This document shows positions 2,761-11,392 of a DNA stretch of 11,963 nucleotides, piece after piece; position 1 is the first letter of the stretch, and every line of letters starts with the position of its first letter. Below the pieces are notes generated by a model that was not told where the DNA came from, made no database searches, and was given only the letters and a program-made list of their open reading frames with translations. This DNA comes from an uncultured bacterium (GTDB taxonomy: Bacteria > Hinthialibacterota > Hinthialibacteria > Hinthialibacterales > Hinthialibacteraceae). The stretch spans positions 1-11,963 of the forward strand of contig CAZXSQ010000191.1 in NCBI GenBank assembly GCA_964643335.1, written 5' to 3'. Made by a program: the position numbers and the translations under genes.

Positions 2761-4254
2761 ATGCGCACTACTCCTATTGGCATAGCCATGTTAAATGATG
2801 AACGGGAACATGTATGGAAAGAAAATAATCCGGAAAATATGTCCGTTGTGAACGCATGGGCCGACTTTATCAAAAAGAACCTTAAAAACATCGATGATTC
2901 GGCTCCGGAAATCATTACCGGCAGTGAGATTATCACTGGTGTCCGGTCAGCTCAGAAAGTTGGTGAAGAACTCGCTCGAGCCAATGTAAAACAAGTCATC
3001 ATGCTGTACAACGTTTGGAATTTCCCTTTTCTTTGCTGGCCTTTTTTGAACAGTATTGGGGATGTGCCGGTTTTAAGCCTATCCAACAATAATGGAGAGT
3101 TTCCGGGAAATGTCGGTCTTCTAGCCACTGATGGAGCTCTACGGCAGGCGGGAAAGCGTACCCACAGGATTATCGGCGATTTAGAAGATAAAAAAACACA
3201 AAACAAGGTATTAAGTTGGATTCGCGCCAGCCAGGCTGCTACGACGATCAAAAATGAGGTTTTGGGAAGCTACGGCGGGCATTCGATGGGTATGGAAACC
3301 GGCTTTGCTCATTTGACCCCAACATTGAAATGCCTCGGCACGACTGTCCGTCAAATCGATCAGCTGTGGCTGCTGAAAGTCATGGAAACCGTCGATAAAA
3401 ACGAAGTAAAAGAAGGCCGGGAATGGTTCGAGAAACTCTTAGGGAAACGGTTAAAATACGACGGCAAGATGTTGACTCCGGAAACTCTGGAAAACCAGAT
3501 TGCTCTTTATTTAGCCATGCGGGAAGTCAATGAAGACAAAGGCTTTGACTTCTGCGGTCTCAAGGGGCAGCGTGAATTGACGGAACATGTCTGTCTGGGA
3601 GATGTTCCCGAGATGCTAATGAACGATCCTTACGATTGGAATGGGCCGAAAGAATCCATCGTCTGCGCAACCGAAGCGGATGCCTATGCCGCCGTGACAA
3701 TGCAGCTGATGAAATATATCAGTGGAGGTCTTCCAACATTGTTCATGGATGTGCGGCTGTATCACCCTGATCTGGACATATGGGATTGGTGCAATTCAGG
3801 AAACCACGCCAGCTGGTTTGCGGCTAAAAGCATGAAACCTGAGAACAATTTCAAATCCATCACCTTCCATCCTGCGCTTGAATTTTATTTCAAAGCGGGG
3901 GGGGCATCGGTTGAGTTCGATGCCGCACCAGGGCAAATGACATTTGCGCGGCTGGGATTGTGGGATGAGAAGCCGTATATGGTAATCGTGCGTGGTGAAT
4001 CTGAAAGACTTCCCGCCGCTCAGCGCAAAAAACTCAATAATATGACCAACCCGACCTGGCCGCACGTGCACGCCAAACTGGAATGCACTTTTGATGAGTT
4101 TGCCGAAGTATTTCCATGCAATCATGTTTTAGGCGTGGATGGCGACAAGGTACAATCGCTGGTATACCTTTGCGAGATTTGCGGGATCGCCCCTGTTGTT
4201 CTCGGCAAAACCAAAGAAGGTCTGGAAACACCTATTTGGGAGCGAGTACGTTGA
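2761..4254 (+). CDS. L-fucose isomerase (FucI-like) sugar isomerase family protein, 497 aa.
   Basis: The translation matches remembered E. coli FucI blocks: [29 protein letters not shown] versus [35 protein letters not shown] versus [18 protein letters not shown] versus NSTWPTTWFAPRL. The conserved Glu (ATE) and Asp (DVR) are present. It has a strong Shine-Dalgarno sequence (GGGAGG). It is shorter than canonical FucI (about 590 aa). No sugar kinase, aldolase or transporter partner lies in the window. Confidence 0.8.
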   Translation: [497 protein letters not shown]

Positions 4255-4325: not shown

Positions 4326-4763
4326 ATGACGGAGTTTCTTCATGGACATATTGTGAGAATATTGGATGATCAACGGCTGGTAATCAACCTGGGAATGGAA
4401 CAAGGGGTTTCTGTGGGGGATCATTTCTTTATTTATGAAGAAGGGGATGAAATCAGTGATCCACAAACGGGAGAATCTCTTGGACGCCTGGAATTGCTGA
4501 AAGCCGAAGTGGAGGCGGTTCACGTTCAGGAAAAAATAACTCTTGTGTCTCCTTTGAAAAAAGACCAACCTCAAAAACAAACCGTTCTTTCAGCCACGTT
4601 AGCCCAGGTATATCAGAGCGATACAGTCGGTGCGGATAAGCAGCGCGGTCACTTGAATGTCAGGCAAAACCAAATCACCGGACTTTATCAGGCTTCACCC
4701 ATTACCGTTGGAGATGCCGTTCGTTCAGCCAAATCCTGGGAAAGTCAACAGGATTCTGTATAA
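4326..4763 (+). CDS. Hypothetical protein, 145 aa. Its N-terminal 70 residues have a small beta-barrel-like pattern (GHIVRILDDQRLVINLGMEQGVSVGDHFFIY…DPQTGESLGRLELLKAEV); the C-terminal half is low-complexity and Q/S/T-rich.
   Basis: ORF with a good Shine-Dalgarno sequence (AAGGAG, 7-nt spacer). No family was recognised. The pattern loosely resembles FeoA/SH3-like or NfeD-type OB/barrel domains. Confidence 0.6.
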   Translation: MTEFLHGHIVRILDDQRLVINLGMEQGVSVGDHFFIYEEGDEISDPQTGESLGRLELLKAEVEAVHVQEKITLVSPLKKDQPQKQTVLSATLAQVYQSDTVGADKQRGHLNVRQNQITGLYQASPITVGDAVRSAKSWESQQDSV

Positions 4764-4788
4764 AGTGATTAAATAACTAATATGCCTC

Positions 4789-4951
4789 GGGAGGGCGAGA
4801 TGGCTCATCAGGAGGGTTTGTCTCAAAACAGGTTAGACACATGGGTTTAACCCTACATATGGTAGGGGTAAACCTATGTGTTTGCCCTATGTTGTGGCAT
4901 CCTCCTCATCTAACATAGTTTTGAGACAAATTCAGGAGATTCGCCCTTCCA
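4789..4951. repeat. Composite, multi-level imperfect palindrome of about 165 nt with MITE-like architecture. It has an outer stem (GGGAGGGCGAGAT / ATTCGCCCTTCC), then 13-bp perfect inverted termini (TTTGTCTCAAAAC at 4817-4829 / GTTTTGAGACAAA at 4918-4930) flanked by direct TCAGGAG repeats (4807-4813 and 4932-4938), then an inner 19-bp near-perfect palindrome centred on CATATG (4838-4880). The right arm carries an asymmetric insertion of about 28 nt containing its own 7-bp hairpin (ctatgtt…aacatag).
   Basis: All repeats were read directly from the sequence. The region is intergenic, between the stop codon of the 145-aa ORF and the asnB start. Confidence 0.55.
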
Positions 4952-4980
4952 TTTAACTCTGTATTGAAAAGAATTTATTT

Positions 4981-6790
4981 ATGTGTGGACTTTGCGGCAT
5001 ACTATACAGCGACAGACAAAAACAGGTCGAGCCAGAATTATTAAGAAAAATGACCGAGGTCATCAGGCATCGAGGTCCTGATGATGAAGGCCAATTAATC
5101 GACGGCTCCATAGGGTTGGGTTCACGAAGGCTGTCGATTTTGGGATTAAATGATGGCCATATGCCGATGTCTACGGAAGATGGAAACATTTGGATCGTTT
5201 ATAACGGTGAGTTGTACAATCACCCTGAAATCAAGCACAACCTATCTTCAAAAGGCCACAAATACCGCACCGGATCCGATACCGAGAGTTTCCTGCATCT
5301 ATATCGGGAATTCGATATTGAGTTTCTTGAGCATACCCGAGGTATGTTTGCTCTGGCTTTGTGGGACCGTCCGCGACAACGGCTTATACTAGCCCGGGAC
5401 CGGCTGGGGATCAAACCTTTATATTACCATCTTGACAGCAAAGCCATTCGTTTCGCTTCGGAGATTAAATCCATACTTTGCGATCCGGAGGTTTCTAGAG
5501 AAATCGATTATGAAGCGCTGAACTTATTTTTGGCTTATCTTGCCACGCCTGCACCTTTTACAATGCTAAAAGGAGTCAAACAGCTTTTCCCAGGTGAAAT
5601 GTTAATCTATCAAGAGGGACAGGTTCAAACACGAACATATTGGCAATCTTCCGAAACGATTATCCCTAATGATATAAAAAACATTGACTCTACAAAACAC
5701 GAACTGGGAGATCGTTTACGCGAAGTGGTTCAAGAACATTTGCTGTCCGATGTGCCGGTCGGGGCGTTTCTTTCAGGGGGGATCGATTCGGGCATTCTGG
5801 TGGGATTGATGAGAGAATTTCTCGGTCCTGGATTTAAAACATTTTCAATAGGATTTCAAGGACACACACTTTTTGACGAAACTCAGCAAGCCCAGTTAAT
5901 GGCTCGGCGTTTTGAAACAGACCATCATGAGCAAATTCTCGCTCCGAATGACTTACTGGAAGCGCTTGATGATATAATTTGGCAGTTGGATGAACCGCTC
6001 GCCGACTCTTCCTGCCTACCGGTCTACTATGTCTCCAAACTGGCATCGCAATATGGAAAAGTGGTTCTTTCAGGTGACGGGGGAGATGAAATCTTTGCAG
6101 GATACCGCAAATACCAGGCGGAATACTATCGCCGTTTTTGTTCTTGGCTTCCCTCCCCTCTTTTAAGATACGTCTCTCATTCAGTCGTACCCCATATTCC
6201 TGAATCCAGGGCCAATTATTGGATGGACCTGCTGCGGCAAGTGAAAAAATTCTTTCGGGGATTCGATCCGGATGCTTTTGAACGTCATTTGGGATGGGCG
6301 ATTCATTTCGAGGATGCCTTGCGGCATCCTATGTTGAATCCGGACATTCGAGAACAAATCAATTTCAATCAACCACGTGATTATCGCCGAAAATTGTATG
6401 ATGAATTACCTCACCAGGAGGAATTGAACAGGATGTTATGGGTGGATTTGCGTCACGGTTTACCGGCGGATATGCTCATGGATTCTTAAGGAAACATTTA
6501 AAGACCTTCTTCCACCTGAAATTTTACACCGCAGAAAACACGGCTTTGATGTCCCAGTGGGTGAATGGTTTAAACATGAATTACGAGAAGTTATAGAGGA
6601 TGTGTGTTCGGAGGCTACCACGAACCGCCGGGGGCTGTTTAACCCCCGGCAGGTCCGCCGCATTATAATGGATCATCAAGACGGGAGAAGAGATTATAAT
6701 AATCAATTATGGATTCTTCTTAGTTTAGAACTCTGGCAACGCCGGTATCTTGATTCAACGCCTGGTTCGATTCCATCCCGGCCCGTTTAA
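4981..6790 (+). pseudogene. asnB: Asparagine synthetase B (glutamine-hydrolysing, Ntn-amidotransferase class), apparently disrupted. Frame 1 stops at 6489 (…LPADMLMDS*) and the C-terminal segment continues in the +1 frame (…LKETFKDLLPPEILHRRKHGFDVPVGEWFKHELREV…LWILLSLELWQRRYL) up to 6790.
   Basis: The N-terminal MCGLCGI (Cys2 nucleophile), SGGIDS PP-loop and the typical C-terminal blocks are present. At the junction, about 45 residues normally carrying the conserved K-DRMSMA-LE-R-PFLD motif are absent and the frame shifts by +1. The Shine-Dalgarno sequence is poor. The combined size would be about 640 aa, like B. subtilis AsnB. Confidence 0.7.
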
Positions 6791-7718
6791 CGGGGATGGC
6801 TTTTATGATTCCCAAGCGGGATATATTCCCTTTTTTGCTTCGTTTTTCTTCCTCAGTTGTATAGATCACTTTGGCAATAATTCGATCATTGGCGTTCAAC
6901 GTGTTTTTATTAAACACCTCTTTGTTTACCCCCTTTCGCTTGAACCAAAGAAAACCATCGTAACTGTGATAGCGGAAAGTAAAGCTGTTGCCGGTGTAAG
7001 AGATATTGGAGAGTTCAACCTCAATTAATTCTCCTGGTATAACCCGTGGTTCCAAATAAATGATTTTTTCATGCCTTTTGTTATCGGTCAGCATCAAGCC
7101 AGGGATGTTGGTGATCTTTAAATTCAATTGATCACCGATATTGACATCGGAAATCTGCTTGATAAAACAACGATATCGCTGACCCAATGCATCCGTCAAG
7201 TTAAATCCGGGATTCCCTTCCAGTATCCGCTGATTATTCGTTTTTGAACGCCGCTGATCCACAACGAAGGCCACTTTGGGATTTATAAACGTGTTGATAT
7301 TTACTTCATCCGGTTCGATATAATCTGAATTGTTGGTTGCGAGAATGTCCACGATTTCTTCACAAATACTATGATTGGAACATTCTTCCGGCTTATGGTC
7401 ATGGTGCAAAAGAATCTCATGAGCCATATCATGCACAATCTTCGTCACGCCAAAACTCCACGCATTCCGCAAACGGTCTACCCATTGCTGTTCTTTTTCT
7501 TCGGACCAATCATCTTCGCAGTGAACACGCTCATTTAAATAAGAAAAATGCTCGGGCTTGAGCAATTCATAATATTTGGTCTTCCGCACTTCAAATGTTT
7601 GTTTGGCCAGTTTGAAACACCCTAATTCAAGCTGTTCCAATATCCGCTCGACGTAATAAAGTGAAACCTGATCATCGTCTTTGGTAGTTTGATAACTTTG
7701 TAGTATCCTGCTTGTCAC
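6720..7718 (-). CDS. Protein of 332 aa with an N-terminal SprT-like zinc-metallopeptidase-type domain whose motif is variant (…VTKIVHDMAHEILLHHDH…: HDxxH-x4-HH rather than HExxH-x5-H), followed by an uncharacterised beta-rich C-terminal domain of about 170 aa.
   Basis: The ORF has a GTG start and a Shine-Dalgarno sequence (AAGAGGTG, 7-nt spacer). Its N-terminal segment (ILEQLELGCFKLAKQTF…YYELL…NERV) and the His cluster resemble the E. coli SprT HELAHLLVWKHFG block. The function is inferred by eye only. Confidence 0.55.
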   Translation of the reverse strand: MTSRILQSYQTTKDDDQVSLYYVERILEQLELGCFKLAKQTFEVRKTKYYELLKPEHFSYLNERVHCEDDWSEEKEQQWVDRLRNAWSFGVTKIVHDMAHEILLHHDHKPEECSNHSICEEIVDILATNNSDYIEPDEVNINTFINPKVAFVVDQRRSKTNNQRILEGNPGFNLTDALGQRYRCFIKQISDVNIGDQLNLKITNIPGLMLTDNKRHEKIIYLEPRVIPGELIEVELSNISYTGNSFTFRYHSYDGFLWFKRKGVNKEVFNKNTLNANDRIIAKVIYTTEEEKRSKKGNISRLGIIKAIPVKRAGMESNQALNQDTGVARVLN

Positions 7719-7952
7719 AACTGAACACCTCTTAAAGATTTGTTCAACAAAGAGTGTAACAACAAGGTTCTTTTCGTATATAATTTACTTGTAAAAACTT
7801 GTACAAAGAAATATTTTGATTTTTTTTGATCCGTGTGAACTAACCCTTTTGTCAATTGGAAAACTTGATATTCTTTAACTGAAATTTCCATCTTATAAAA
7901 TTTATATATATTCGCTTAAGTATAAGTATGTTTTAAAGCCGGATGTGAAGAT
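7719..7952. promoter_or_regulatory. AT-rich divergent intergenic region, presumed to hold the promoters for the minus-strand SprT-like gene and the plus-strand micro-ORF / GT-C gene. Candidate elements are TATATAAT at about 7786-7793, TTGTCA at 7849-7854, and TTGATA…TATAAA at about 7866-7900.
   Basis: The calls rest on sequence composition and approximate sigma-A-like hexamers. The spacing is not canonical for any single pair, so no promoter is assigned precisely. Confidence 0.3.
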
Positions 7953-8120
7953 ATGAAAAAGGAATTGTGTTCAGCCATCAGTATAGCCAAACATAGAAAA
8001 TCATGTCCCTTCTGTGGCCGAAAGTGCCATCCGGCGCCTCAATTCATTTCTCAACCAATTCCCTCTGATCCTCTTTCTCGCGGGATGCACATACGTGAAG
8101 ATAAGGAGAATTCTGAATGA
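7953..8120 (+). CDS. Possible 55-codon Cys-rich micro-protein (MKKELCSAISIAKHRKSCPFCGRKCHPAPQFISQPIPSDPLSRGMHIREDKENSE). Its stop codon overlaps the start of the downstream GT-C gene (ATGA).
   Basis: The ORF is not in the supplied track, being below the size cut-off, but is open in frame 3. It contains a C-x11-CxxC-x3-CH cluster. It has a weak Shine-Dalgarno sequence. The stop overlap of 4 nt is typical of translational coupling. It could alternatively be a non-coding leader. Confidence 0.25.
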   Translation: MKKELCSAISIAKHRKSCPFCGRKCHPAPQFISQPIPSDPLSRGMHIREDKENSE

Positions 8121-11100
8121 AAAATCGTTCTAAACGTGGAGAGCCGCGCCTAACCAAGGCGCTTTCCGACTCTTCCCGTTATTGGCCGATCATTTCAATT
8201 GTGATTTTGGCTGTATGCATTCGATTATATGGTGTCACAAATCCGCTTTATGATTTGAATTACTGGCGCCAAACTGAAACGGCGGCTTTGGCCAGGAATT
8301 ATCATGAAGACAATCTCCCATTTCTTTATCCGGAAGTGGACTGGATTGGCCCTCACGGCCATGCCGAAATGGAATTTCCTCTTTATCCTTATATTCTGTC
8401 ATGGATTTACAGAATTTTATGGCCATCCGAAATATTCGGGCGATTACTCACTATACTCTGTTCTGCCGGTGCGATACTGGCCATTTGGGATATTGTGAGG
8501 CAAACGATCAACCGGCGCATTGCGCTATTAGCCGCCGCGTTTTTTGCCGCATCCCCCCTAGCGGTTTATTTCGGCCGGACGTATCAGCCCGATATGATGA
8601 TGGTTTTCTTTTCCACGGCATCGATCAGCTGCCTTCTACGCTGGATGGGAGAATCAAAAAATGTCTGGTTTTATTGCTCAGCGATTTTATTGGCTTTGGG
8701 CGTTTTGTTGAAACCTCCCTGCCTGCTTGTTGTATTACCTTTGTCTTGGATTTTGTATAAACAAGAAGGTCAAACATTTATCTTAAACAAAGAGAACTGG
8801 ATATATGCCTCGATAGTCATCGTGCCGGCCATTTTATGGTATGCCCATGCGCAAACTTTTTTTGAAGAAACAGGGGCGACCTTTATGTGGCACTTTAAAA
8901 ACTTTTCTGTGGAACGTCACCTTTTTTCTGTCTGGAGTTCTTTTGAATTCTGGACCACCATTGGTATGCGTTTCACTGATGGCATTCTTGCGTATGTGGG
9001 TTTACTGCCCTTTATTATAGGGATTTGGCGGTTGTTTTATCCTTGGCCTGGCCGTGCCTTGCTGGGCTGGTGGGTAGCCGGAGTTGCTGTATTTTACCTG
9101 GCCATTCCCGGTCATCATATCGGGCATACCTATTACTCACTATTGGCGATCCCACCTGCAGCTATCATTACAGCCATCGGATGCGACAAACTTGGACATT
9201 GGTTGAACTCCTATTTGCATTTTTCCTACAATTGGATTGTGCTGCTCCCTCTTATCACTGCAATTTTAGGATTCAGTCTGCTTATTTCCCGCAACTATTA
9301 TGGCAAACTCTATTATTACTACGACGATGCTCTGGCCCTGAGACAGCTTGTTCCTGAAAATGAACTCATCGCCGTCAAAGACGACTTGATGCATACTCCG
9401 GAGTTTTTTTATTTCATCAACCGGAATGGATGGCATCTCGCCAATTATCCTGCAAAAGGAACGGATAACTCGCCATGGATAGAAAAAGTTAGGAAGAAAG
9501 GAGCGGCCTATTATTTTGGATTAACTGAATTTCAAGGCAACCATCCGCTTCTTTATCTTCAAGACTATTTACACGGTCAATATATATGGGATCATTATGT
9601 TATCCAGGACATTGGATTCAAATATTTTGCCGCCCGTTTGGACCAACCGATTTATGGCAATCATCTTTTTTCTCAATATAAAAATAAAAAAATAGCCATA
9701 CCGGATATGGCCAGAAACGCTCTTAACGATCCTTCAATTCAAACCGTTTCATTATATGAGTGGCAGTCAGCCGATGCGATATTGCTGGATTTTCACAAGG
9801 TTCATCCTGAAGAAATGAACTCTATTCGAACTAATTATGAAAATGCTGCTGCAAATGGTTTTGTGGTGACTCATCAGGAATCCGGAAGATTGGTTCTTGA
9901 AAAAAGTGGTCACATTAAGCCGGTCACCGGTTTGATCGATTCGGTGGGATCATCTCAACTTGTACTTACTCCGCAACTTCCAAATGGAAGATTTTATTTA
10001 GGCTATTTTGAAAAAGGGCGGCATCGAGTCAGTTTTCGTTTCAGCCAGACAAGTTTTCCCGATCCGGTAACCCTTGCGGTTGAAGACCGCTTTGGGAATA
10101 CGATTCAGCAGCGTGTTTTGCAACCGGTTCACTTTCCACATCTCAGCGAAGGTGAACGGCCAGAGTGTATATTTACCCTTGACCAGCCTTTGGTCTTGTA
10201 CGCAGCCGCTTATACGGAAAAAGGCTTAATCCGTCCGGAATCCATTGTCTGGATGCCTGACGTGCAGTGCGTACAAACAGAAACGGTTATTCAAACTGAG
10301 CAGCTTCACACAAACATGGCCATGACGGTTACTGATGCCAAAGCTAACCGCAACAAGGCCTTGTGGGGATGGACAGAGGATGAACCTCGGTTTATCTTCC
10401 ACGGTCCTTTTTTCCATTACCCTTCAGGATTATATGAGATGGCTTTTCGTCTCAGAGCACCGAACAAATGGAATCCCGGTACCATAGAAGTGGGTGTTTA
10501 TGCAGACGGCAATACCACATTGGCACATCAAGAACTATATCCTTATTACTCCGGTGAAAATTCTCTCGGTAGGAAATACTCCAAAATACCTTTATCAGCG
10601 AGAATCCGCTCCACGTCAACCATTGAAATGAGAGCACTGCTGCATCCGAACGCCGAAGCGTTGATCGATACGATTCATGTTCACCAGCAAGCGAAAACAT
10701 TCAAACCGCGTGATTTGAATAATCCCTTGTGTCTTATTCCACGTGATGGACAGACAAAAATGATTACGCCGGACGGTAGAATCATCGGCCAAGCAGGAAC
10801 AATTCAACGAAGAGTACGGCTGGTGTCTTCACCCATCGCTTGGGCGGCGTGGAACCAAAATACAGGGGAACTGTATATCGATGAAGCCGGACGTATTATC
10901 GGTGAGAAGAATGAGGAATACTGGTCAATTCAAAGAGCACTTGAAGAAAAAATTATCAATTTTAATGTATCGCCAGACGGTTTATCGATAGGAGTCCTTA
11001 CCGATAAAGGCCGTGTTTTTATTTGGCATCAGGGTGAGATTGAAACTTTCACTATCCCAGCAACCGACTTTCCATTCAGAGACCTGCTGGTATTGGGTAA

Positions 11101-11392
11101 AGGTAAAGCCCTCGTGTTGGATAGGAATGGGGGTGTTATCCCGGTCGGGGAGGCACAAAAAATCGAGGGACTGCCTGTATTTTGGTCGGATGTGGCCCGT
11201 GCGTTTATTCATCATCCGGACGGTATTTATGTTGTAGACTGTCTTGGCGCGATTCATTCGTCATCCGGCTTAGAACCAATCCACTCACCGCTTTACAGGC
11301 CGGAAAATTGGATTATTGACGCCTACCGGATGTCGAACGGCATTTGGGTATTTTTATCCAAAACCGGCGAGATTCATACTTTCCAAGAATAA
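8117..11392 (+). CDS. Polytopic GT-C-fold membrane glycosyltransferase of the ArnT / PMT (GT39/GT83-like, undecaprenyl- or dolichyl-phosphate-sugar dependent) type. It has about 11-12 transmembrane helices in the first 480 residues, fused to a C-terminal extracytoplasmic region of about 600 aa that ends in tandem beta-propeller-like repeats. Total length is 1091 aa.
   Basis: The transmembrane helices are seen directly. The first extracytoplasmic loop (NPLYDLNYWRQTETAALARNYHED…PHGHAEMEFPLYPY) resembles the ArnT/PMT loop-1 signature (DE.RYAEIAREM….YFEKPPL.YW). A strong Shine-Dalgarno sequence (AAGGAGA) is present. The C-terminal 250 residues show recurring units of about 40-45 aa (TPDGRIIGQAG / DEAGRIIGE / DKGRVFIWHQGE / DRNGGVIPVGEA / PDGIYVVDCLGAIH / SNGIWVFLSKTGEIH), reminiscent of RCC1-like beta-propeller blades. 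Confidence 0.8.
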   Translation: MKNRSKRGEPRLTKALSDSSRYWPIISIVILAVCIRLYGVTNPLYDLNYWRQTETAALARNYHEDNLPFLYPEVDWIGPHGHAEMEFPLYPYILSWIYRILWPSEIFGRLLTILCSAGAILAIWDIVRQTINRRIALLAAAFFAASPLAVYFGRTYQPDMMMVFFSTASISCLLRWMGESKNVWFYCSAILLALGVLLKPPCLLVVLPLSWILYKQEGQTFILNKENWIYASIVIVPAILWYAHAQTFFEETGATFMWHFKNFSVERHLFSVWSSFEFWTTIGMRFTDGILAYVGLLPFIIGIWRLFYPWPGRALLGWWVAGVAVFYLAIPGHHIGHTYYSLLAIPPAAIITAIGCDKLGHWLNSYLHFSYNWIVLLPLITAILGFSLLISRNYYGKLYYYYDDALALRQLVPENELIAVKDDLMHTPEFFYFINRNGWHLANYPAKGTDNSPWIEKVRKKGAAYYFGLTEFQGNHPLLYLQDYLHGQYIWDHYVIQDIGFKYFAARLDQPIYGNHLFSQYKNKKIAIPDMARNALNDPSIQTVSLYEWQSADAILLDFHKVHPEEMNSIRTNYENAAANGFVVTHQESGRLVLEKSGHIKPVTGLIDSVGSSQLVLTPQLPNGRFYLGYFEKGRHRVSFRFSQTSFPDPVTLAVEDRFGNTIQQRVLQPVHFPHLSEGERPECIFTLDQPLVLYAAAYTEKGLIRPESIVWMPDVQCVQTETVIQTEQLHTNMAMTVTDAKANRNKALWGWTEDEPRFIFHGPFFHYPSGLYEMAFRLRAPNKWNPGTIEVGVYADGNTTLAHQELYPYYSGENSLGRKYSKIPLSARIRSTSTIEMRALLHPNAEALIDTIHVHQQAKTFKPRDLNNPLCLIPRDGQTKMITPDGRIIGQAGTIQRRVRLVSSPIAWAAWNQNTGELYIDEAGRIIGEKNEEYWSIQRALEEKIINFNVSPDGLSIGVLTDKGRVFIWHQGEIETFTIPATDFPFRDLLVLGKGKALVLDRNGGVIPVGEAQKIEGLPVFWSDVARAFIHHPDGIYVVDCLGAIHSSSGLEPIHSPLYRPENWIIDAYRMSNGIWVFLSKTGEIHTFQE

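Follow-up and report, generated by a model that had tools for sequence, protein, structure and literature searches.

A probable 120-bp MITE in an existing hairpin upstream of an asnB-like gene, and the many bacterial loci that share its terminal core

The stretch of DNA analysed here (the window, an entire NCBI contig of 11,963 bp) contains a nested inverted repeat at positions 4789–4950, in the spacer between a 145-aa ORF and an asnB-like gene. Is this a structured RNA, selected because it serves the genes on either side? Or, is it mobile DNA that has come to rest between them? The Correia/NEMIS elements of Neisseria, RUP of the pneumococcus, ERIC, and Nezha are about 100–160 bp long, carry terminal inverted repeats, and are intergenic. 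They are co-transcribed into stable hairpins and can affect mRNA processing or termination. The other genes of the window are an encapsulated-ferritin / encapsulin pair, a fucose-isomerase-like gene, and a PMT_2 glycosyltransferase gene. An initial annotation, based on the letters of the sequence, had proposed a miniature inverted-repeat transposable element (MITE) within an older hairpin, with a cis-regulatory structure as one alternative.

The three concentric levels of inverted symmetry described in that annotation are all present. The middle level is the perfect 13-bp inverted pair that had been noted, TTTGTCTCAAAAC at 4817–4829 and GTTTTGAGACAAA at 4918–4930. The outer pair exists but is shorter than the 12–13 bp first given, being 10 nt in length (GGGAGGGCGA, 4789–4798, and TCGCCCTTCC, 4941–4950) and 90% complementary; as RNA, 10/10 positions of these arms pair, one of them via G-U. 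The inner palindrome around CATATG is likewise real but imperfect, with 38 nt (4819–4856 / 4862–4899) that are 76% complementary. The right half has the additional side hairpin expected of it, at 4888–4917 in the minimum free energy (MFE) structure. A stable RNA fold was also found: the + strand of 4780–4960 folds at −78 kcal/mol, against −47.7 ± 3.6 kcal/mol for dinucleotide shuffles (z = −8.45; 0/200 as good), and the fold of the minus strand is weaker (−63.9 kcal/mol, z = −4.96). No second copy of the 4789–4950 structure is present within the 11,963-bp window, in agreement with the first reading.

The middle level is part of longer terminal inverted repeats of 16 bp, 4814–4829 and 4918–4933, in which 14/16 positions are Watson-Crick pairs and the remaining two are G-T. 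The left repeat, GGGTTTGTCTCAAAAC, is on the + strand and includes at 4819–4829 the invariant 11-nt core TGTCTCAAAAC. The right repeat, GTTTTGAGACAAATTC, is on the − strand and has the reverse complement GAATTTGTCTCAAAAC. The element bounded by these ends is 120 bp in length (4814–4933) rather than the approximately 114 bp suggested initially, and the reading of it as a MITE is retained. It has no contained ORF of 60 aa or more, 120 bp being 40 codons at most. Its non-coding interior (4830–4917, + strand) consists of a long imperfect hairpin at 4834–4884, centred on CATATG, and the side hairpin. Adjoining the right end, the interior holds CCTCCTCATCT (4901–4911). A promoter scan returned a promoter-like site inside the MITE (4834–4863), but such sites occur there at chance frequency.

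Immediately outside the terminal repeats, AGGA is present on both sides, at 4810–4813 and 4934–4937, the left copy being separated from the 11-nt core by 5 nt. At an offset fixed beforehand, a 4-mer would match by chance about once in 256 cases. The initial annotation had seen a longer target-site duplication here, the heptamer TCAGGAG. Direct copies of the heptamer do stand on both sides (4808–4814 and 4932–4938), but the true duplication is the 4-bp AGGA, and the 7-bp repeat is AGGA together with adjacent bases of the repeat ends. One further TCAGGAG is found in the window at 340, and the heptamer count by itself is not significant (three or more copies in 18/200 shuffles).

Beyond the duplications are the two halves of what would have been the target. 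The left half (4789–4809, + strand) has the 5' arm at 4789–4798 and a remainder of the loop at 4799–4809 with a small GATG/CATC stem; the right half (4938–4950, + strand) ends in the 3' arm at 4941–4950. Both halves are delimited by the inverted repeat and the MFE structures. When 4813 is joined directly to 4938 (...CATCAGGAGATTCG...), the reconstructed empty site consists of the two 10-nt arms around an 18-nt loop, and folds at −20.9 kcal/mol. Of the three concentric palindromes, the outer one is therefore the target hairpin, now split, the middle one is formed by the ends of the transposon, and the inner one by its own internal hairpins. We put the probability at roughly 85% that 4814–4933 is a non-autonomous 120-bp MITE with IS1182/IS5-type ends, inserted in an existing hairpin, and we infer that this copy arrived by transposition.

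The pattern TGTCTCAAAAC-N60-90-GTTTTGAGACA was scanned over 185,579 species-representative genomes (596 Gb). Inverted pairs of the 11-bp core, 60–90 nt apart, are present at 117 genomic loci or more, against a chance expectation by our own calculation of about 2 matches (22 fixed bases, 31 spacings, 596 Gb). The matches listed fall in about nine phyla: Planctomycetota, Bacteroidota, Ignavibacteria, Bacillota, Acidobacteriota, Verrucomicrobiota, Binatia, Aminicenantes, and Pseudomonadota. Many of the Bacteroidota matches listed are from Flavobacteriaceae, and the Verrucomicrobiota group includes Kiritimatiellae. Element sizes, again among the matches listed, cluster at 89, 99, and 109–112 nt. 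Family members adjoin unrelated genes in both orientations and on many contigs. Their interiors are unrelated across lineages; within one genome, however, they are 89–100% identical, in both orientations. A planctomycete MAG has 9 such copies, an acidobacterial MAG has 6, and Flavivirga aquimarina has 5. One short pattern, TGTCTCAAAAC ... GTTTTGAGACA, marks a MITE family in at least nine phyla.

The interior of the window element has no similarity to those of 118 other family members, global identity being 60% or less, which is background. A single copy of this interior is known, the analysis having covered one contig of the source genome. Phage and plasmid collections searched by BLAST with the element gave no match, and a literature search with the terminal repeat sequences returned primers only. 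Viral contigs scanned with GAGNCTGTCTCAAAAC yielded 28 single matches, with no partner end within 3.5 kb; these were treated as chance-level. The classical hairpin MITEs (Correia/NEMIS, RUP, ERIC, Nezha) have terminal repeats and targets unrelated to those of the window element, the target being TA for Correia, RUP, and Nezha. To our knowledge none of them has the TGTCTCAAAAC core or targets hairpin loops.

An imperfect palindrome of about 100 nt with conserved ends and a variable centre is superficially like an integron attC site, and copies 2 kb apart do occur (L006). Could the structure then be another kind of palindromic repeat, whether attC, a REP/BIME element, or a chance palindrome? We give this almost no credence. 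By our own reading against the published consensus, the ends TCAAAAC / GTTTTGA depart from the attC RYYYAAC / GTTRRRY, there is no integrase or cassette array in the window, and the copies are scattered over many contigs in both orientations with 4-bp target duplications. For a REP element the window element is too long, and it lacks the GTAG motif. A chance palindrome is excluded by the fold shuffles and by the excess of genomic loci over the roughly 2 expected.

The target duplication is a property of the family and not of the window copy alone. It was analysed in 125 distinct insertions, with permuted flanks as the control. Across these the inverted repeat runs 5 nt past the 11-nt core, with the consensus G-A/G-G-N-C/T and complementarity of 0.57–0.92. 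In 42 of the 125, the 4 bp that lie exactly 5 nt outside the core on either side form a perfect direct repeat (permutation mean 1.8, maximum 6). In a second class, 15/125 and mostly planctomycete, CTAG is found one position further in. With offsets 4 and 5 taken together, perfect 4-bp duplications are seen in only 57/125. With AGGA/AGGA at the 5-nt offset, the window copy conforms exactly to the main class.

Past the duplication, the flanks are often themselves inverted repeats, as in CCCCTCCTC-AGAT-GAGGAGGGG, CGCGGAC-TAAA-GTCCGCG, and CCCTCCCCTTT-TTCA-AAGGGGAGGG. Reconstructed empty sites fold at −10.1 kcal/mol compared with −5.7 kcal/mol for sites chosen at random in these loci (p = 6.6e-6), and have 5.05 in-register pairs of 12 compared with 3.22 at random sites (p = 1e-8). 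The sites are also mostly intergenic; 31% cross a long ORF as against 84% of random positions. Insertion sites of the family are thus preferentially palindromic and intergenic.

One target hairpin, CCCCTCCTC-NNNN-GAGGAGGGG, has been struck repeatedly, in both orientations and in different samples, by MITEs and by full-length IS1182 elements. It is found in one acidobacterial MAG (L005, L019, L069, L091, L112, L114) and in the metagenome contigs L159 and L230. This hairpin may itself be a repeated palindromic element. Separately, the 99-nt subfamily of the Flavobacteriaceae (e.g. L006, L018, L040, L045, L061, L111) has one-sided conserved sequence past the repeats (…ACGGTCTCGGCTATGAGTAG) and an ACGG/CCGT duplication. 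This suggests that the element is part of a larger composite, or that its target is recognised by sequence.

Which transposase would move such an element? Metagenomes were scanned with the commonest 16-mer end, GAGGCTGTCTCAAAAC, and partner ends were then sought in the 120 loci obtained. The result was many MITE-sized pairs (99–290 bp) and ten elements of 1559–1817 bp with GAGGCTGTCTCAAAAC ends. Each of the ten has one ORF of about 470–525 aa (471–523 aa from the first Met), and all 10/10 ORFs match NCBIfam NF033551, the IS1182 family transposase, at 330–485 bits where the cut-off is 270. The domains DUF772, DDE_Tnp_1, and DDE_Tnp_1_6 were found in the three ORFs tested. Eight of the full-length elements have both flanks; 6/8 are in palindromes, and three of the six have 4–5-bp duplications. 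One of these IS1182 elements has an AGGA duplication in a GGGTC/GACCC hairpin, the same duplication as in the window. Within the 117 or more genomic loci, a search for full-length elements returned only extra MITE ends or ordinary genes. The full-length IS1182 element in L228 (reverse-strand position 23, 1765 bp) is flanked by an inverted repeat of 22 bp, ACCATACATATAATTAGGCAAT / ATTGCCTAATTATATGTATGGT, which is perfect, and it has no duplication. Either this is a very long palindromic target or the terminal repeats are much longer in this case.

The eleventh full-length partner is of a different kind. L262 (200–1063, 864 bp) has the identical 16-bp ends GAGGCTGTCTCAAAAC and encodes an IS5-family two-ORF transposase (NF033580; 97 + 130 bits). 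Since this IS5-family element has the identical 16-bp repeat, the mobiliser cannot be told from the ends alone, and the same ends are common to two related transposase families, IS1182 and IS5. This bears on how both families are related. For the GRRTTTGTCTCAAAAC ends, then, the question is whether the MITE was mobilised by an IS5-family transposase, of the IS5 or IS427-like groups, instead of one of the IS1182 family. A second point in favour of an IS5-type mobiliser, besides L262, is the likeness of the window end variant TTTGTCTC to the planctomycete subfamily whose ends are GGCTTTGTCTCAAAAC and whose flanks are CTAG/TA, as is typical of IS5-family targets; the relevant likeness is to the two-ORF, IS427/IS1031-like members and to this subfamily in CTAG sites. 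We nevertheless consider it improbable. L262 duplicates 2 bp, TA, within CTAG. The duplication of the window copy is instead AGGA, 4 bp long and not TA, and is in a hairpin, a preference that the planctomycete copies do not show. The IS1182 elements (L259, L159, and others) have duplications of 4–5 bp or none, and are in palindromes. A 4-bp duplication in a hairpin matches both these full-length elements and published IS1182 features (PMC3281130, PMC4923244), and 10/11 of the full-length partners recovered are IS1182. By the length of its duplication and by its hairpin target, the window copy was probably mobilised by an IS1182-type transposase rather than an IS5-type one.

Among published members of the IS1182 family, the 1653-bp ISPse1 has 16/16-bp repeats and duplicates 4 bp of its target (PMC3281130). 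MITEs of 160–169 bp related to ISMac2, also of the IS1182 family, are found in Methanosarcina acetivorans, and one set, of 160 bp, has a 4-bp duplication (PMC3852290). IS1272 and TnSha1, from the same family, insert into hairpins, many of which are terminators and several confirmed as such; part of the stem is deleted and no duplication is made (PMC4923244, PMC5678879). A review, as cited in PMC4923244, has some IS1182 members targeting palindromes. The window element resembles the family (ISPse1, IS1272, ISKpn6) and its derived MITEs in having 16-bp repeats that start G-R-G, a 4-bp duplication, and a hairpin target. It differs in lacking a transposase, in its unique interior, and in its outer bases: the outer 5 nt are GGGTT / GAATT, not the GAGGC of the recovered full-length IS1182 partners, which share the 11-nt core with it. 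Unlike IS1272, the window insertion keeps the stem and duplicates 4 bp. No full-length element with the window end variant TTTGTCTC was found among the sequences searched, and annotated IS1182 members from plasmids (IS1272, ISKpn6, and an Aeromonas IS) have ends that start GAGNC and lack the TGTCTCAAAAC core. By its ends, its repeats of about 16 bp, its 4-bp duplication, and its hairpin target, the window element would be an IS1182-family derivative, with mobilisation predicted from these features. The placement of a MITE in the loop of a pre-existing hairpin, first proposed from this single locus, is supported by the shared termini, the family-wide 4-bp duplication, the palindromic sites, and the IS1182 partners, as well as by the documented insertion of IS1182 elements into hairpins (PMC4923244, PMC5678879). 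Hairpin targeting, experimentally described only for staphylococcal IS1272, is extended here to environmental lineages and to non-autonomous elements.

A mechanism can be suggested from these comparisons. The 16-bp repeats would be recognised by IS1182-family DDE transposases, the same repeats being present on some IS5-family elements. A full-length element would provide the transposase in trans, and this enzyme would bind the two ends and excise or copy the MITE. Insertion would then take place by a 4-bp staggered cut in the loop region of the hairpin that separates asnB from the operon upstream, AGGA being duplicated when the cut is repaired. The result is an ordinary kind of bacterial mobile DNA, although the family spans many phyla.

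The position and the fold of the structure can also be read in another way, as a structured RNA, cis-regulatory (leader, attenuator, or terminator-insulator) or small, that is under selection on behalf of asnB or of the operon upstream. The upstream 145-aa ORF (4326–4763, + strand, with a weak FlgT_C match) has its stop codon 26 nt before the outer hairpin, and 30 nt separate the structure from the asnB start downstream. The fold of the + strand is very stable, and the outer stem is followed by a tail, albeit only weakly T-rich. Yet an RNA structure leaves the flanking direct repeats unexplained, and the members of the family adjoin unrelated genes in both orientations. Rfam gave only a chance-level match (a miRNA) at E ≤ 1 in the window element, and no gathering-score matches on the elements in 18 related loci. 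Readings of the structure as a CRISPR repeat or a ribozyme were rejected on sequence features; a minus-strand CUGAUGA at 4805–4811 is without a hammerhead core.

The asnB-like gene itself is of little help to a regulatory explanation, since it is broken in this contig. On the + strand at 4981–6489, the N-terminal 500 residues are in frame, and the C-terminal 112 residues are in another frame at 6452–6787. Against a 645-aa homologue, residues 1–500 correspond to 4978–6477 and residues 534–645 to 6452–6787 in the different frame, so that about 33 residues are missing in addition to the frameshift. The gene is either a pseudogene or the product of an assembly error.

The closest AsnB relatives are 66–70% identical, and some are labelled Candidatus Omnitrophota. 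They keep the downstream synteny of asnB, a 330-aa gene on the opposite strand, and then PMT_2. In the window (4981–11392) this is asnB, an opposite-strand gene of about 330 aa overlapping the asnB 3' end, and a 1091-aa PMT_2, an order kept in the Omnitrophota-like relatives L266–L270. The upstream genes are different in each relative, and where the upstream gene is close the spacers are 78–125 bp. The window spacer is 217 bp; without the 124 bp of the element and one duplication copy it would be 93 bp. No trace of a MITE was found upstream of asnB in the nearest relatives, whose upstream regions are not orthologous to that of the window. The MITE sits at a synteny breakpoint, because everything upstream of asnB differs among the relatives. 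A cis-regulatory RNA for asnB, as offered in the initial annotation, is disfavoured by the absence of the element upstream of asnB in the closest relatives and of an Rfam family, and we judge selection for asnB or the upstream operon to be very improbable. In the annotation of the contig a candidate regulatory RNA is removed; the structure upstream of asnB is treated as mobile-DNA debris, not as a leader.

MITEs of this family can alter termination or mRNA stability, because they split and enlarge intergenic hairpins; they also break metagenomic assemblies. The enlarged hairpin in the window may still be a terminator or an RNA-stabilising structure.

The outer hairpin that was split has a likeness of its own. 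With AGATGGCTCATCAGGAGATTCGCCCTTCC and the 5' arm GGGAGGGCGAG (4789–4813 + 4938–4950), it is identical at 26–27/29 positions to the long hairpin inside a 110–112-nt subfamily of planctomycete MITEs with the same ends, a score reached by 0/500 shuffles. The matching stretches are at 3571–3598 in L049, 3999–4026 in L065, 391–415 in L115, and 4113–4137 in L076, and in L076 a solo fragment of the hairpin module lies outside an intact MITE. The outer hairpin was also considered as a decayed older MITE, a candidate that was rejected as unsupported: its flanks lack terminal-repeat relics and score no better than shuffles (p = 0.64–0.93). An older element could have left it behind, or it could be a hairpin repeat in its own right, both targeted and carried by these transposons.

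A broader and more tentative proposal is that the window copy belongs to a pan-bacterial superfamily of hairpin-seeking MITEs, in which the core TGTCTCAAAAC is used by both IS1182 and two-ORF IS5 elements, the hairpin interiors are interchangeable, and the outer hairpin is homologous to the planctomycete module. We regard this as possible but rather unlikely. No prior description of such a superfamily was found. If true, it would imply module exchange or horizontal spread between Omnitrophota-like bacteria and Planctomycetota, or elements that carry and re-seed their own targets.

Elsewhere in the window, directly 3' of the encapsulin gene at 2584–2657, a hairpin is followed by a T-tail and has a weak, sub-threshold Rfam match to SpR14 (31.7 bits; gathering score 50). 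The likeliest reading of this hairpin is simply an intrinsic terminator for the EncFtn-encapsulin operon.
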